Source: a virus
UHGV virus genome: UHGV-0254580
Strand: one strand, 5' to 3'
DNA: 13,064 nucleotides
The first letter of the stretch is position 1, and the number at the start of each line of letters is the position of its first letter. Under the pieces are notes generated by a model. The model was given only the letters and a program-made list of their open reading frames with translations. It was not told the origin of the DNA and did not search any database. A program made the position numbers and the translations under genes. Shown one piece after another: positions 634-12,893 of the stretch.

Positions 634-1068
634 TCATTTGAATACAAACTGTTCTGAAAGAATATTATGACAAATACATTTCGCCTGAATACTATTATCT
701 CTCATTCTAATATATTCTTTGTGGGCAACAGATAAAGAACGACAACCGCTGTTTACACGTGGGTATTTTTCCAACATATGTTCGCATATCAAAAAAGCAT
801 TATTAATAGCATTTAATTTATGGCTTAACTCTCGTAGCTCGGCCCTTTTTTCAATACGAACATTACGACTAAGAGATAAAGGTAGCTGTGATAATGCATT
901 TGAATAATCAGCCACTGCCATTTTCAGAGCCATTTTGGCCTTCAGAGCCTCCTGTCGCCGCCAAACATTCATTGCCCAAAAACCTAATGTAACAGTTACA
1001 ATTGAACCTAAAGCCGATACAGCTGACCACACAGTTCCCCAAGGCCAGTTAAGTAATGTATGCCACAT
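634..1068 (-). CDS. Hypothetical membrane-anchored protein (moron, AT-rich island); start probably the second ATG preceded by GGAGG
   Basis: ORF-track ORF 634..1080 begins at a GTG; the MMWHTLL ATG pair lies just downstream of a GGAGG. Hydrophobic N-terminal segment (WGTVWSAVSALGSIVTVTLGFWAMNVW) followed by a charged helical region and a Cys-containing C-terminus. Local base composition is markedly more AT-rich than flanking phage DNA. Confidence 0.6.
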   Translation of the reverse strand: MWHTLLNWPWGTVWSAVSALGSIVTVTLGFWAMNVWRRQEALKAKMALKMAVADYSNALSQLPLSLSRNVRIEKRAELRELSHKLNAINNAFLICEHMLEKYPRVNSGCRSLSVAHKEYIRMRDNSIQAKCICHNILSEQFVFK

Positions 1069-1436
1069 CATAACCTCCACTGAATGAAAAGGTTAGTTTA
1101 TCGTAAGTGAACATCACTGGCACTATCTAAAGATTAGCTGCTCTACTAGTTGTACTCTCGATAATCTAAACAAAATGATACGTAATAAACCTGTTCATGA
1201 CTAGCTCTACTAGACACATGTTTAATCATCTACAAACGATTTGTACAAACTTCCACTTTCATATTGGTCCAAAAGGTTGGACTAATAGTTAATCACGATG
1301 CATATTTTATGTAAGCTGCTACATTACACTATAAAAACGCTGGCGTCTGAATTTAAGCCCATAAGTTTTATAAAATTATCATAATACACAGCTTTATTAG
1401 GCGCATTCGCACTGATAATGAAAAATATAACTCGAG

Positions 1437-2994: not shown

Positions 2995-3070
2995 TGGTGC
3001 TGGTTAACGGACTTGAACCGCTACCCATTCGCTTACAAGGCGACTGCTCTACCATTGGAGCTAAACCAGC
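2995..3070 (-). tRNA. tRNA-Thr (anticodon UGU), phage-encoded, with encoded CCA
   Basis: Manual cloverleaf on the minus strand: acceptor GCTGGTT/AACCAGC (7 bp), D-arm GCTC-CAATGGTA-GAGC, anticodon stem GTCGC/GCGAA with loop CTTGTAA (U33, anticodon TGT, A37), T-arm AGCGG-TTCAAGT-CCGTT, discriminator A, CCA. 76 nt. Confidence 0.6.
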
Positions 3071-3075
3071 ATGTT

Positions 3076-3150
3076 TGGCGGGACAGCGTGGACTCGAACC
3101 ACGATAAGAAGGTTAACAGCCTTCCGTAATGACCTTTATACGACTGACCC
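3076..3150 (-). tRNA. tRNA-Asn (anticodon GUU), phage-encoded, with encoded CCA
   Basis: Manual cloverleaf on the minus strand: acceptor GGGTCAG/CTGTCCC (one U-U mismatch), anticodon stem GAAGG/CCTTC (perfect) with loop CTGTTAA (anticodon GTT), T-arm CGTGG-TTCGAGT-CCACG (perfect), discriminator G, CCA. D-stem is only 3 bp. 75 nt. Confidence 0.5.
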
Positions 3151-5174: not shown

Positions 5175-5581
5175 TCGTACCTCCTGTCGGTAAACCTGAC
5201 ACCCTGACCAATAGCCCATGCTGTCGTGTACTCAATCAGACTTGCCATACGCTTCACACTCATCTGCGCGCTGCTTTCGCGGATGTTGACGTATTCGCCT
5301 TCAAGCCCGGGCAAAACATCAGCTTCCTGCTTTGTTGCCACTGCATGACCGCTTATCAACAAAACCTTCCATTGCTCTGGTTTTAACCATTTGCCGCACC
5401 ATTGAACTTGACGAGCGATATCCGCCAGCATCGCGTGAAATTTTGCGTTCTGGTCAAGATTTCGCTTGTAGTCAGTAATGCGGATGGTGACTGGCTTGTC
5501 TTTATCGAGAGGAGTTGCGAGGATGGCGTTGATTGCAGCTTGCTGTTGTTGCTTAGTTCGGAGGAATATTGTTTGCTTCAC
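5171..5581 (-). CDS. ninB: NinB-family protein (recombination mediator family)
   Basis: 136-aa protein with ...[38 protein letters not shown]..., similar to recalled lambda NinB (...RNRSLDQNRKLWACLGDVSRQVEWHGRWLDAESWK...). Confidence 0.8.
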
Positions 5582-9425: not shown

Positions 9426-9663
9426 TCAGGTAATTGGCAAGCCGCTTAGTCAGCTCAGCCATTTCATCGTCTTCGATTCCGTATTCCAGAACAGCCAGCA
9501 TCATGCTTACCTGCGAGAAGAAACCATTCTTCCATCGGCTTACCTGATATTCAGGAACCCCCATTGCTCGAGCGAATGTCTTCTGCCCCATCAGTGCCAG
9601 TTTGTTCAGCAAGGCTGACTCGATGCGAGCCGCTTTCTTGCTTTTAGTTGCAATAGTACTCAT
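9382..9663 (-). CDS. cII: cII-like transcriptional activator
   Basis: 93-aa protein ...[64 protein letters not shown]... parallels recalled lambda cII (...[60 protein letters not shown]...). Confidence 0.85.
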
Positions 9664-9779: not shown

Positions 9780-10010
9780 TTAAGCGGCCATTAATTCAGG
9801 CCAGATGCTTTCCCAATCAACCGGATGAAGGTCTTTGCGAGTCACTTCACCATTGCTGAACTTCTCAATCAGAACACAAAGTGCTGCGCCCAATTCATGA
9901 TTACGGCTAAGTGCTTTCCTCAAATAGCCGATAGAAGTTCCGCACTTGGTGGCAAATTCTCTCTGCTCTTCCAGTGAAAGGGAGTTCAGATACAAGCGGA
10001 GTTCTTCCAT
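9780..10010 (-). CDS. cro: Cro-like HTH repressor (76 aa), first gene of the rightward early operon
   Basis: Divergent from cI across the operator region; RBS GGAAGGAG upstream of the ATG; HTH-like segment QREFATKCGTSIGYLRKAL. Assignment is positional plus HTH. Confidence 0.65.
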   Translation of the reverse strand: MEELRLYLNSLSLEEQREFATKCGTSIGYLRKALSRNHELGAALCVLIEKFSNGEVTRKDLHPVDWESIWPELMAA

Positions 10011-10118
10011 TTGCTATCTCCTTCCCGTTGTTGAATAAGATGAGTTTACCTGTAGGTAAAAATCAAATAAATACCCATAGGTTATTTACCGGCAGGTAAT
10101 CAAAGATAGAATTAAATC
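10011..10118. promoter_or_regulatory. OR-like divergent control region (PR/PRM) with three TACCnnnnGGTA-type operators
   Basis: Operator cores TACCTGTAGGTA (10047-10058), TACCCATAGGTT (10072-10083, imperfect) and TACCGGCAGGTA (10087-10098). Candidate PRM -10 TAGAAT (10107-10112) ends about 6 nt before the cI ATG with no SD, suggesting a leaderless cI mRNA as in lambda. Confidence 0.7.
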
Positions 10119-10805
10119 ATGGATAAATACGAACAAAGACGACTAAGGCTGATAGAGATAAGAGACCGATTCTGTAATGGAAAGGCCTCAGAGTTGGCTC
10201 GTCGAATAGAAAGGGAACCATCATACGTTTCCAGAATGCTGTATCCGGAAGGAAAAAGCGGAAAAAAACGCATTGCTGACGATATGATGGAACTAATTGA
10301 AAAATCTTTTAATCTCCCACGCGGATGGATGGACATGCTTGCAGATGGTAAAGCTGGAGCTACAGACCATCTTGAGTTTGCGGGTAACGTTCGTGCGGGT
10401 TTTGTTCCGGTAATTGGTGAAGCCGTTTTGGGAGTTGATGGCTCAGTGGATATGATTGAATTCAGATCCGGTTGGTTAAGCATCTACAGCGGCGATAACG
10501 ATGCTTACGGTCTGAAGGTTAAGGGTGACAGCATGTGGCCAAGGATTCAGTCAGGAGAATATGTTGTTATTGAACCAAATACGCCAGTACATCCAGGTGA
10601 TGAAGTCTTTGTAAGGACCAAAGACGGTCACAACATGATAAAGATCATGAACAAAACAAGAGACGGTGATTATCAGTTTAGTAGCATAAACAGTGATCAC
10701 CGCCCAATCACTCTTCCTGTTGAAGAAGTTGATAAAATGCATTTTGTTTCAGCTATTGTGAAACACACCAGGTACGTAGACCAGGACGATCTGCCAAAAG
10801 TTTGA
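10119..10805 (+). CDS. cI: cI repressor (N-terminal HTH, C-terminal LexA/S24-peptidase autocleavage domain)
   Basis: 228-aa protein with HTH-like ELARRIEREPSYVSRML and C-terminal S24 features (GDSMWP Ser motif, downstream Lys); divergent from cro across palindromic operators. Not lambda cI by sequence. Confidence 0.9.
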   Translation: MDKYEQRRLRLIEIRDRFCNGKASELARRIEREPSYVSRMLYPEGKSGKKRIADDMMELIEKSFNLPRGWMDMLADGKAGATDHLEFAGNVRAGFVPVIGEAVLGVDGSVDMIEFRSGWLSIYSGDNDAYGLKVKGDSMWPRIQSGEYVVIEPNTPVHPGDEVFVRTKDGHNMIKIMNKTRDGDYQFSSINSDHRPITLPVEEVDKMHFVSAIVKHTRYVDQDDLPKV

Positions 10806-10819
10806 GGATAAAGCAGCAA

Positions 10820-11116
10820 GTGTTTATACCCGGCATAGTAGTCGCTGTTGTAATCATCTGCTTCATATGGGCAAAGTTATCTCCTGTAAGCTCTAAGCAT
10901 ACAGCTGAACTCATGAAGAAGAAGCATCTTATACATGAGGCAGAATCGATAATTAAAAAGTTCAAAGGCATGTCATACGACGACATGTCATCAGAGCAGA
11001 TTGCTATGTATAAATGCGCCATTGAGCGTCTTGACTACTTAAACGGACTCAAACCCAAACACACCCCAGTAGAATCAAAATTGCCGCAATGGCCAAGCAA
11101 TCCAAATAGCTTCTGA
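10820..11116 (+). CDS. Small membrane-anchored protein co-transcribed with cI (rex-position accessory gene); alternative TTG start at 10802
   Basis: Track ORF 10802..11116 starts at a TTG overlapping the cI stop; a GTG at 10820 has GAGGA about 11 nt upstream. N-terminal TM helix (FIPGIVVAVVIICFIWAKL) then a charged soluble domain; followed by a terminator. Confidence 0.6.
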   Translation: MFIPGIVVAVVIICFIWAKLSPVSSKHTAELMKKKHLIHEAESIIKKFKGMSYDDMSSEQIAMYKCAIERLDYLNGLKPKHTPVESKLPQWPSNPNSF

Positions 11117-11127
11117 CATCTCCTTTC

Positions 11128-11150
11128 AGCCCGCAAAGCGGGCTTTTTTA
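11128..11150 (+). terminator. Intrinsic terminator ending the cI operon
   Basis: AGCCCGC-AAA-GCGGGCT followed by TTTTTTA, 11 bp after the stop of the membrane-protein ORF. Confidence 0.65.
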
Positions 11151-11168: not shown

Positions 11169-11253
11169 ATTACCTGAAAATTCAAGCAGGTAAACTCTTA
11201 CATCAATTTTATTTACCTGCAGGTATAGACAACTGTTTTACCTGTAGGTATAT
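11169..11253 (+). promoter_or_regulatory. OL/PL-like region: operators (TACCTGCAGGTA and TACCTGTAGGTA) overlapping a leftward-type promoter driving N
   Basis: Perfect palindrome TACCTGCAGGTA (11213-11224) and TACCTGTAGGTA (11238-11249), 25 bp apart; split palindrome TTACCTG-N10-CAGGTAA (11169-11192). Candidate -35 TAGACA (11225-11230), 17-bp spacer, -10 TATATT (11248-11253). Confidence 0.7.
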
Positions 11254-11295
11254 TTTAGGCCATCAGCAGGACGCACTGACCACCATGAAGGTGAT

Positions 11296-11326
11296 GCTCT
11301 TAAAAATTAAGCCCTGAAGAAGGGCA
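11296..11326 (+). promoter_or_regulatory. nutL-like site (boxA TGCTCTTAA, boxB GCCCTGAAGAAGGGC)
   Basis: Reads GATGCTCTTAAAAATTAAGCCCTGAAGAAGGGC between PL and N; boxB hairpin GCCCT-GAAGAA-GGGC as recalled for lambda nutL. Confidence 0.75.
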
Positions 11327-11482
11327 GCATTCAAAGCAGAAGGCTTTGGTGTGTGTGATACGAAACGAAGCATTGGCCGGAAGTGCGAATCCGGATTAGC
11401 TGTCAATGTGCCATTGCTGGGTGTTTTCGTTCAGGACTACGACTCCCACACACAACCAAAGCTAACTGACAGGAGAATCCAG

Positions 11483-11806
11483 ATGGATGCACAAACACGC
11501 CGCCGCGAACGTCGCGCAGAGAAACAGGCTCAATGGAAAGCAGCAAATCCCCTGTTGGTTGGGGTAAGCGCAAAACCAGTTAACCGCCCTATTCTCTCGC
11601 TGAATCGCAAACCGAAATCACGAGTAGAAAGCGCACTAAATCCGATAGACCTTACAGTGCTGGCTGAATACCACAAACAGATTGAAAGCAACCTGCAACG
11701 TATTGAGCGCAAGAATCAGCGCACATGGTACAGCAAGCCTGGCGAACGCGGCATAACATGCAGTGGACGCCAGAAAATTAAGGGAAAATCGATTCCTCTT
11801 ACTTAG
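11483..11806 (+). CDS. N: Antitermination protein N (lambda-type)
   Basis: 107-aa product MDAQTRRRERRAEKQAQWKAANPLLVGVSAKPVNRPILSLNRKPKSRVESALNPIDLTVLAEYHKQIESNLQRIERKNQRTWYSKPGERGITCSGRQKIKGKSIPLT from the internal ATG of track ORF 11351..11806, preceded by AGGAGA; matches recalled lambda N including the Arg-rich boxB-binding N-terminus. Confidence 0.9.
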   Translation: MDAQTRRRERRAEKQAQWKAANPLLVGVSAKPVNRPILSLNRKPKSRVESALNPIDLTVLAEYHKQIESNLQRIERKNQRTWYSKPGERGITCSGRQKIKGKSIPLT

Positions 11807-12361
11807 TTACTTAGATATTGGCCTTGGCTTTATCTCAATATTATATGGATCATAGCTGGCAACTAATTCAGTCCAGTAAATATCCTCAATAGGGAATAAT
11901 ATATGCTTCCCGTTCCATCGGGAAAAAGTTTTGTTCAACACACCAAGCTCAATCAACTCACTAATGTATGGGAATTGTTTTGATGTAACCACATACTTCC
12001 TGCCTTCATTAAGGGCTGCGCACAAAACCATAGATTGCTCTTCTGTAAGGTTTTGAATTACTGATCGCACTTTATCGTTTTGCATCTTAATGCGTTTTCT
12101 TAGCTTAAATCGCTTATATCTGGCGCTGGCAATAGCTGATAATCGATGCACATTAATTGCTAGCGAAAATGCAAGAGCAAAGACGAAAACATGCCACACA
12201 TGAGGAATACCGATTCTCTCATTAACATATTCAGGCCAGTTATCTGGGCTTAAAAGCAGAAGTCCAACCCAGATAACGATCATATACATGGTTCTCTCCA
12301 GAGGTTCATTACTGAACACTCGTCCGAGAATAACGAGTGGATCCATTTCTATACTCATCAA
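11807..12361 (-). CDS. sieB: Superinfection exclusion protein B (SieB), lambda-type
   Basis: 184-aa membrane protein abutting the N stop on the opposite strand; length, position and polarity match recalled lambda sieB; hydrophobic N-terminal segments. Confidence 0.8.
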   Translation of the reverse strand: MMSIEMDPLVILGRVFSNEPLERTMYMIVIWVGLLLLSPDNWPEYVNERIGIPHVWHVFVFALAFSLAINVHRLSAIASARYKRFKLRKRIKMQNDKVRSVIQNLTEEQSMVLCAALNEGRKYVVTSKQFPYISELIELGVLNKTFSRWNGKHILFPIEDIYWTELVASYDPYNIEIKPRPISK

Positions 12362-12485
12362 ACTGTAGGGGTTGTAATAGTTTATCCGATTTCTCGCTGT
12401 AGGGGTACACGAGAACCACCGAGCCTGATGTGGTTAAAAGACAGGCACAATCTTTACTACCGCTATCCACTATTTAAGGTGATAT

Positions 12486-12572
12486 ATGGAAGAAGAATTT
12501 GAAGAGTTCGAAGAGCATCCTCAGGATGTGATGGAACAATACCAGGACTATCCGTATGACTACGACTATTGA
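12486..12572 (+). CDS. Small acidic ORF (28 aa; lambda orf28-like) overlapping the ral start by 17 nt
   Basis: MEEEFEEFEEHPQDVMEQYQDYPYDYDY; position 124 bp from the sieB start and 17-nt overlap with ral match the recalled lambda arrangement. Expression unverified. Confidence 0.4.
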   Translation: MEEEFEEFEEHPQDVMEQYQDYPYDYDY

Positions 12573-12756
12573 TAAAAATCAATGGTGTGGACAATTCAAG
12601 CGATGCAATGGATGCAAGCTGCAATCGGAATACATGGTTAAGCCTGAAGAAATGTTTCCTGTAATGGAAGATGGGAAATATGTCGATAAATGGGCAATAC
12701 GAACGACGGCAATGATTGCCAGAGAACTTGGTAAACAGAACAACAAAGCTGCCTGA
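12556..12756 (+). CDS. ral: Restriction alleviation protein Ral (lambda-type)
   Basis: 66-aa ORF MTTTIDKNQWCGQFKRCNGCKLQSEYMVKPEEMFPVMEDGKYVDKWAIRTTAMIARELGKQNNKAA; size and position (N, sieB, orf28, ral, ea10) as in lambda. Confidence 0.8.
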   Translation: MTTTIDKNQWCGQFKRCNGCKLQSEYMVKPEEMFPVMEDGKYVDKWAIRTTAMIARELGKQNNKAA

Positions 12757-12893
12757 TAGTGACCTTTATTTTTGGCATAAATAACAGAATAAACACTGCA
12801 CTGTGTATTCATTCCAACGAGTGAATACACGGAGCAATGTCGCTCGTAACTAAACAGGAGCCGACTTGTTCTGATTATTGGAAATCTTCTTTG

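Follow-up and report, generated by a model that had tools for sequence, protein, structure and literature searches.

In phage lambda, the slot between the repressor gene cI and the left operators OL holds rexAB, which is transcribed in the lysogen from the PRM promoter (PMC7067206). The viral genome UHGV-0254580 raises the question of what else a lambdoid prophage may keep in this slot. The stretch that was analysed, called the window below, is 13,064 nucleotides (nt) long, and an open frame on its plus strand (10802-11116) directly follows cI. An initial annotation had interpreted the frame as a lysogen-expressed defence or superinfection exclusion gene. This interpretation was reasonable and is partly supported, and the better support comes from an independent genomic argument. 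The frame contains a gene (10820-11116) of the family PHROG 10450, and in several P22-like prophages paralogues of this gene stand in the place of sieA. Prophage genes that are expressed in the lysogen decide which other phages infect a strain. They are relevant to phage therapy, to how Stx and other converting phages spread and to the passage of DNA across the inner membrane.

Start codon and coding status of the gene

The window protein matched phrog_10450 with an E-value of 1.4e-54, and residues 7-104 of the 104-residue frame covered profile positions 1-98 of 98. The N-terminus M-(Y/F/W)-I-(P/S), common to every homologue, maps to codon 10820. The window has GTG at this codon, and 23 of 31 close relatives have ATG. 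In one diverged relative (L004) a stop codon is located two codons upstream of the homologous ATG. On the basis of the profile match from residue 7, the family N-terminus, the ATG/GTG polymorphism and the stop in L004, the start of the gene was placed at 10820. The protein is therefore 98 residues long and not about 104, and the gene (10820-11116, plus strand, stop codon TGA) begins 14 nt after the cI stop. The frame is open over 10802-11116 and is longer than the gene. A start at TTG 10802, coupled to the stop codon of cI, had also been proposed. It is ruled out by the family N-terminus, the polymorphism at 10820 and the upstream stop in L004, and the two genes do not overlap. A GAGGA Shine-Dalgarno sequence (10804-10808, plus strand) overlaps the stop codon of cI at a distance of 11 nt from the start, and a similar GAGGA is found 8 nt upstream of the start in a second diverged relative (L005).

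A set of 32 close copies, comprising the window, phage mEp043 and IMG/VR prophages, was compared. Besides the start codon, 18 sites varied in the open reading frame (ORF), and 12 of these were at codon position 3 (p = 0.004). Ten of the changes were synonymous and eight were non-synonymous, with the frame intact in all copies. The crude ratio of non-synonymous to synonymous substitution rates (dN/dS) among the close copies was about 0.27 for the ORF and about 0.12 for cI. In the family members from P22-like prophages (type 2, see below), a strong AAGGAGG ribosome site precedes the start by 6-7 nt. The third-position bias, the frame intact in all close copies, the homologues of the same length and layout at 30-42% identity and the type-2 ribosome sites indicate that the ORF is a genuine coding gene and not a chance frame. 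An antisense ORF of 89 residues (10753-11022) was rejected as a real gene because the substitution pattern fits only the plus frame from 10820. The other two plus frames were rejected as well, since variants create or remove stop codons in them.

The gene is not called by the NCBI pipeline PGAP in E. coli PA45B (L064, 2505-3222), the RefSeq genome checked in detail, which has a 718-bp gap without annotation between cI and N. Among 30 matches listed from 52 complete E. coli RefSeq genomes, cI was the sole feature annotated under the match. In the GenBank records of mEp043 and for the type-2 paralogues, the genes are annotated as hypothetical proteins.

The two genomic slots of PHROG 10450

The contexts of 60-odd loci were classified (L numbers are locus labels; L064 is E. 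coli PA45B, L065 is P22 and L066 is 933W), and two standard slots were found. In type 1, the gene is located directly after this type of cI and before OL/PL and N. Type 1 was found in the window, in mEp043, in 29 IMG/VR loci and in the two diverged metagenomic relatives L004 and L005. cI and the ORF were adjacent in all 31 close loci, and the order was the same in L004 and L005. By megablast against 5426 complete E. coli genomes, cI was found in 52 and the ORF in 52.

Type 2 (27 loci) is found in P22-like prophages. The paralogue is convergent with ejection gene 16 and abuts it, in the same orientation as mnt. In the N7-type allele, only 8 nt lie between the stop codons of the paralogue and gene 16. 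From the paralogue to the tailspike gene the content is variable, being ant/arc/mnt, other ORFs or almost nothing. The N7-type allele was present in 57 of the 5426 complete E. coli genomes, and each of the two family forms is found in about 1% of them. Both types are carried by one 38-kb P22-like contig, IMG/VR UViG_2563366933_000009 (L011 and L047, 37% identical). The presence of both paralogues in one prophage suggests that their specificities are non-redundant.

P22 has sieA in convergent orientation to gene 16, with a separate promoter annotated for it. About 420 nt upstream of the paralogue in L044 and L053 were found to be nearly identical to P22, comprising the end of orf59a, the mnt terminator, the sieA promoter, the leader, the ribosome binding site CTAAGGAGGTTGGT and the GTG; L044 keeps orf59a at 98%. 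The similarity to P22 stops exactly at the start codon, where P22 reads GTG TCT GAT (SieA) and the paralogues read GTG TAT ATA TCG (M/V-Y-I-S). At other type-2 loci the match covers no less than the last ~33 nt (CATGGTATCCTGC..AAAACTAAGGAGGTTGGTGTG), and farther upstream the DNA is different throughout. A sieA homologue was absent from 27 of 27 type-2 loci. Because the upstream DNA, ribosome binding site and GTG of P22 are kept, the similarity ends at the start codon and no sieA is present in the locus, the alignments indicate that the paralogues in several P22-like loci are precise replacements of the sieA coding sequence under the sieA expression signals. Paralogues that occupy the sieA slot with the upstream region, ribosome binding site and start of P22 sieA give independent support to a lysogen-expressed role of the exclusion type.

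The recombination joint between sieA and the PHROG 10450 paralogues lies exactly at the shared ribosome binding site and GTG (P22, L065 2831-2895, compared with about 3860-3931 in L044, L053 and L055). The start of P22 SieA was called uncertain in the 2024 SieA paper (PMC10883804), and the position of the joint supports the GTG start, which gives a protein of 164 residues. A conserved TGGTATCCT, similar to an extended -10 element, was observed 22-30 nt before the start and is kept in L055 despite loss of the annotated -35 region of P22 sieA.

Position in the repressor operon

Directly upstream of the gene is cI (10119-10805, plus strand), an S24/LexA-type repressor gene that was identified by PF00717 (E 1.4e-17) and phrog_4 and is 99.6% identical to cI of mEp043. 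An intrinsic terminator (11128-11150, plus strand) begins 11 nt past the stop codon of the ORF. It consists of the stem 11128-11144 (AGCCCGC-AAA-GCGGGCT) followed by a T-run, with a folding energy of -12.6 kcal/mol (z -2.5), and is kept in 31 of 31 close relatives and in L004. The terminator scan showed no terminator-like site in the interval from cI to the ORF. Further downstream, two operator palindromes of OL and the PL promoter TAGACA-17-TATATT (11213-11254 together, PL at 11226-11254, plus strand) were located by pattern and consensus scans, and the mEp043 annotation reads 'putative PL' for the latter. The next gene is that of a lambda-type antiterminator N (11483-11806, plus strand; PF11438 N36, E 1.5e-26), the first of the PL operon. 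The placement in the rexAB position between cI and OL and the presence of a terminator closing the ORF, both part of the initial annotation, thus agree well with the scans. As judged from this layout, the repressor operon of this mEp043-type lambdoid prophage has two cistrons, and the ORF is the latter of them. The segment 10700-11260 is 99.1% identical to mEp043, where the counterpart of the ORF is mEp043_049, 'hypothetical protein'. In L005 no hairpin terminator was found between the ORF stop and OL (5294-5330), and the repressor-operon transcript may there continue into the PL region.

A PRM-like promoter, TTTACC-16-TAGAAT (10085-10112, plus strand), was found by consensus scan, and its designation as PRM is inferred from the analogy with lambda. 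Its -10 hexamer ends 6 nt before the ATG of cI, which implies a leaderless cI mRNA. A candidate cII-binding site of PRE (TTGCN6TTGC, 9638-9651, plus strand) faces cI and the ORF and also appears in the mEp043 annotation; the pattern matched three times in the window against 0.76 expected and is weak when taken alone. An internal promoter for the ORF was looked for inside cI, and only one 9/12 consensus match (10428-10456) was seen, not above shuffle expectation. As there is no terminator from cI to the ORF and one right after it, co-transcription from PRM is the natural reading, and since PL lies downstream, only PRM, or PRE through the candidate cII site, can read the ORF. The ORF would thus be transcribed together with cI from PRM in the lysogen, and PRE would probably add transcription during establishment. 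The transcript would end at the terminator of the ORF, before OL/PL, and translation would start from a weak GAGGA/GTG site 14 nt after the cI stop.

Other prophages carry quite different genes at this position. In BTP1, bstA follows cI and is read from the cI promoter (PMC7067206). In 933W (L066 3191-5290), whose cI is 49% identical to that of the window, L0084, L0083, stk and L0081 lie between cI and the annotated terminator tM. This four-gene cargo in the same slot shows how variable the content of the slot is. With regard to the traits of a moron in the Juhala/Hendrix sense, the window ORF has its own terminator, no promoter of its own was seen, and its base composition showed no anomaly, the GC content of 41% being close to that of cI (43%). 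Beside this cI type the ORF is never absent (52 genomes each), and the type-2 copies act as exchangeable cassettes.

Predicted topology and structure

The alignments used for the protein (A1-A3) contained up to 18 members with 27-42% identity. A transmembrane segment, residues 2-20 (FIPGIVVAVVIICFIWAKL, encoded by 10823-10879, plus strand), has a mean Kyte-Doolittle value of 2.5 and is helical in the AlphaFold2 model. Lys or Arg residues before the hydrophobic segment were found in none of 20 family members, and the next 15 residues hold from one to six of them (four in the window protein). By the positive-inside rule, the lack of Lys/Arg before the segment and their presence after it place the N-terminus outside and the C-terminus inside. 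The initial annotation had described one N-terminal transmembrane helix followed by a charged cytoplasmic domain, and hydropathy and Lys/Arg counts gave the same predicted pattern, with a basic domain, in all 20 members. The product is accordingly predicted to be a bitopic inner-membrane protein with a periplasmic N-terminus of 1-2 residues, one transmembrane helix and a basic cytoplasmic domain of roughly 78 residues.

AlphaFold2, run with an 18-sequence alignment, gave a model with a pLDDT of 79 and a pTM of 0.57. The model has a long helix (residues 5-47) that extends from the membrane into the cytoplasm, a loop, a second helix (residues 58-76) and a C-terminal tail of moderate confidence. 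The predicted cytoplasmic domain (10880-11113, plus strand) thus comprises the extension of the transmembrane helix to residue 47, the loop, the helix 58-76 and the tail, and it is modelled as a helical hairpin with a conserved C-terminal W-P tail. Residues K34, I38, E40, A41, M56, C66, A67, L71, W91 and P92 are invariant in the family, and H27 is nearly so.

Family size and homology searches

Exhaustive HMMER against 1.8 billion representatives, together with a profile search over 5.8 billion proteins, gave a family of only about 24 clusters at 90% identity. Its members are 27-42% identical to the window protein and keep its length and layout. The window protein in turn has the architecture of the family, with the M-(Y/F/W)-I start, the single N-terminal transmembrane helix and the invariant residues, and the N7 paralogue matched PHROG 10450 with an E-value of 3.2e-52. 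The named sources are E. coli, E. fergusonii and Salmonella, and all members are labelled 'hypothetical'. Two scans of the GTDB species-representative genomes gave no relative.

The initial annotation had recognised no motif in the protein. The Pfam scan at E <= 1 gave three unrelated sub-threshold matches only (TTC3, 60KD_IMP and Chromo_MIT1). There was no match in NCBIfam, none in a sequence profile search of the PDB, and none to a defence family of PADLOC-DB 2.0 at E <= 1. A fold search with the predicted structure returned generic helical hairpins only. A word-indexed search of the 5.8-billion-protein database and an exhaustive phmmer search gave nothing beyond PHROG 10450; low-complexity matches to two long, repetitive proteins (P0008 and P0012) were set aside. 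Literature searches that covered exclusion genes located after cI and exclusion proteins of the inner membrane gave no paper on PHROG 10450. The description of the gene as undescribed holds for its function only. Its family had already been catalogued as PHROG 10450, and the mEp043 annotation lists the gene as a hypothetical one.

One member of 114 residues (P0009, L006 5001-5345) is located beside Hcp and Tlde1 genes of type VI secretion and is divergent from P22-like gp7/gp20. Its locus matches neither of the two slots and could be the edge of a decayed prophage.

Rate of divergence

The DNA of L004 and L005 is collinear with the window, and the OL operators are conserved again past the ORF. 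At the amino acid level, L004 and L005 are 84% identical to the window in cI and 89-92% in cro, compared with 41-42% in the ORF. The corresponding dN values were 0.54-0.62 for the ORF, 0.10 for cI and 0.07-0.10 for cro, with synonymous sites saturated in all three genes. Judging by these comparisons, the ORF is constrained, as its motifs are kept, yet it changes about six times faster than its neighbours cI and cro.

Comparison with known systems

The product can be likened to the inner-membrane exclusion proteins of prophages, although it is not homologous to SieA. Both SieA of P22 and, by prediction, the window protein are prophage inner-membrane proteins, and the type-2 paralogues are found exactly at the sieA position. 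Homology between PHROG 10450 and SieA is nevertheless ruled out by locus searches and by hhalign, which was run against type A SieA and gave a probability of 0.5% over 13 aligned columns within the transmembrane segment. SieA has 162-164 residues, at least three transmembrane helices and the motif FxRYPxEAxxFNK on the cytoplasmic side (Leavitt et al. 2024, PMC10883804), whereas the window protein has 98 residues and one hydrophobic segment, and the motif is missing from alignment A3. The location of sieA between genes 16 and 9 of P22-like prophages is shared by the type-2 paralogues only; the window gene follows cI.

With rexA-rexB of lambda, the window gene shares the slot after cI and before the terminator and OL in the PRM operon. 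rexA-rexB is however a two-gene abortive system with a soluble sensor and the multi-pass RexB, while the window has one ORF between cI and the terminator, encoding a 98-residue single-pass protein that gave no Pfam match to the Rex families. BstA of BTP1 and Stk of 933W are likewise encoded after cI, transcribed with it and have known or proposed anti-phage functions, but they are large and soluble (a DNA-binding abortive protein and a Ser/Thr kinase, respectively) and have no similarity to the window protein. Similar in size class and in likely mode of action are HK97 gp15, a YebO-like moron, and T4 Imm, which are small inner-membrane proteins encoded by a prophage or phage. Models for YebO and Imm are included in Pfam, and the window protein matched neither these nor the SieB model in the scan at E <= 1. 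The HK97 gp15 gene lies in the tail operon with its own promoter, in contrast to the window gene, a cistron of the repressor operon. Proteins of the HK97 gp15/T4 Imm type block genome entry without touching the outer-membrane receptor (PMC3594210).

Proposed function

Exclusion of other phages by a protein expressed in the lysogen is considered somewhat probable as the function of the gene. The initial annotation had called it a strong candidate for such a determinant. The slot, the paralogues in the sieA slot with sieA signals and the rapid divergence beside conserved neighbours speak for this, but PADLOC, Pfam and the fold search gave no match, which leaves genomic context as the only basis for a defence role. 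PHROG 10450 would be a portable accessory gene expressed in the lysogen, with superinfection exclusion at the inner membrane as its most likely job. By analogy with SieA, HK97 gp15 and T4 Imm, the protein may stop the DNA of an incoming phage from passing through or out of the conduit in the inner membrane. A possible target is the phage ejection or tape-measure channel at its cytoplasmic end, or alternatively a host inner-membrane factor needed by that channel. An entry block at the inner membrane is a possible mechanism, though not quite a probable one. It is more doubtful whether PHROG 10450 is a minimal exclusion class with one transmembrane helix, interchangeable with the three-helix SieA, in which repressor-linked and ejection-gene-linked lineages would differ in target specificity and block genome delivery at the cytoplasmic face.

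Several points weigh against an exclusion role of this kind. The predicted topology is derived solely from the positive-inside rule, and a soluble cytoplasmic domain is an unusual geometry for blocking a conduit that spans the periplasm. Every source annotates the family members as hypothetical. Occupancy of the sieA slot shows shared regulation and not shared function, and among the genes in the sieA and cI-N slots are some whose function is unknown or other than exclusion (for example orf59a and L0083/L0084 of 933W). The fast divergence could mean relaxed constraint instead of an arms race, and the dN/dS of about 0.27 among the close copies is a sign of purifying and not of positive selection. 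Finally, the initiation site in the window is weak (GTG, with GAGGA at 11 nt), and PGAP makes no call.

An explanation outside phage defence could be that the protein is a lysogenic-conversion factor, which would modulate a sensor kinase, transporter or protease of the host inner membrane in the manner of MgrB or SafA. Many small bitopic proteins of E. coli are known to act in this way (small envelope proteins are discussed in PMC3594210). By its context the gene would be expressed in the lysogen, its product would have a cytoplasmic domain well placed to reach those of membrane proteins, and no defence signature was found with PADLOC. This explanation is all the same unlikely. The family is confined to prophages, with no relative in the GTDB genomes scanned, and occupies two slots best known for exclusion genes, and the six-fold faster divergence and the two paralogues in one prophage fit a conflict between phages better than a conserved host target. 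An abortive-infection effector or sensor is a distinctly unlikely alternative. Such a protein would be inactive in the lysogen and, upon infection, would oligomerise or open the membrane like RexB or a holin, so that the membrane potential is lost and the phage fails. The slot between cI and N does hold abortive systems in lambda (rexAB) and BTP1 (bstA) (PMC7067206), the abortive-type exclusion protein SieB (PF14163) is encoded 700 nt away on the other strand, and a single transmembrane helix with a helical hairpin could oligomerise. RexB, however, has several transmembrane helices and needs RexA, whereas a small protein without a recognisable sensor is found here. One helix with an outer tail of 1-2 residues would be a poor channel former unless highly oligomeric, PADLOC gave no match, and the paralogues take the place of sieA, which is an entry blocker and not an abortive gene.

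It is very unlikely that the protein is an internal regulator of the phage, tuning its own lysogeny, induction or lysis, for instance by sequestering a regulator or protease at the membrane. The tight link to one cI type (52 genomes each), a pairing that is held in L004 and L005, and possible co-expression from PRE would fit such a role. The type-2 paralogues are however located away from cI, and some of their loci (L055, L044 and L039) have no mnt, arc or ant, so the protein does not need the immunity genes. Conservation of cI and cro at 84-92%, compared with 41% for the ORF, also argues against co-evolving partners. Within the exclusion idea itself, the lowest probability is given to a reversed topology. 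The N-terminus would then be a cleaved signal peptide or an N-in signal anchor, and a periplasmic helical domain would, like T4 Sp or lactococcal Sie2009, act on the incoming tail or ejection apparatus. In front of the nearly invariant His27 there are often small residues (VSS, SNA, TGA, SSA), which resemble a -3/-1 signal peptidase site, and a periplasmic domain would reach a trans-periplasm conduit more easily. A basic n-region was nevertheless present in none of the 20 members, Lys/Arg residues follow directly after the hydrophobic core, and several members have Ile at the putative -1 position.

Since the family swaps precisely with sieA under shared expression signals, what was a generic 'hypothetical protein after cI' is now the subject of a sharply testable hypothesis. 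If exclusion is true, comparison with the unrelated SieA, in the same slot and under the same promoter, could show what such proteins target during injection. Should PHROG 10450 be a minimal exclusion class, it would give genetic access to the final and poorly understood stage of DNA entry in P22-like and possibly other lambdoid phages. If there is no exclusion, a small membrane protein has long been kept by a repressor operon for another reason. The family is tiny and easily cloned, so it is cheap to test and informative either way.

Other features of the window

From the ORF list and profile searches, the window was identified as the early and lysis region of a lambdoid prophage. Its minus strand carries an HNH endonuclease gene, spanin-like and endolysin-like ORFs, an S-type holin gene, two tRNA genes, a Q antiterminator gene, nin-region genes, a primase-helicase gene, an O-like replication gene, cII and cro. 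On the plus strand are cI, the ORF (10820-11116), N and ral; the region between N and ral holds sieB, on the opposite strand. The location of cI, the ORF, N and ral on the plus strand makes this strand the 'leftward' direction of the phage map.

The cro-like gene (9780-10010, minus strand) is divergent from cI. Its product matched phrog_35, transcriptional repressor, with an E-value of 7.5e-16 and is 100% identical to Cro of mEp043. It also gave a sub-threshold match to PF15943 'YdaS_toxin' (26 bits, cut-off 30), which ties it to the YdaS-type Cro of the Rac prophage. Between cro and cI, a pattern scan located three palindromes of the TTACCNNNNGGTA type as the OR operators (10046-10099), and those at OL are of the same type. 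The operator pattern matched ten times in the window, with 1.45 matches expected, and apart from one match with one mismatch at 753 all were within 10046-10099 and 11213-11251.

Left of PL (11263-12760) the window is a mosaic compared with mEp043. N is 92% identical to N of mEp043 at a different offset, and sieB (11807-12361, minus strand, PF14163) and ral (12556-12756, PF11058) are present in the window while the mEp043 stretch lacks both. A boxB-like hairpin, GCCCTGAAGAAGGGC (11311-11325), had been flagged as a minus-strand 'terminator', and it is more likely nutL, as we assume from the lambda sequence.

No known RNA was found near the ORF with Rfam at gathering thresholds, the two tRNAs being the only matches in the window. 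The tRNA genes, Thr (TGT) at 2995-3070 and Asn (GTT) at 3076-3150, are located on the minus strand between the Q antiterminator and holin genes. Lambdoid phages of the Stx type have their tRNAs and toxin genes at this point of the map. An ORF of 148 residues (634-1080, minus strand) between the spanin-like and HNH endonuclease genes matched no Pfam family at E <= 0.01, and its one PADLOC match was at noise level. It has a hydrophobic N-terminal segment and may be another accessory gene for a membrane protein.

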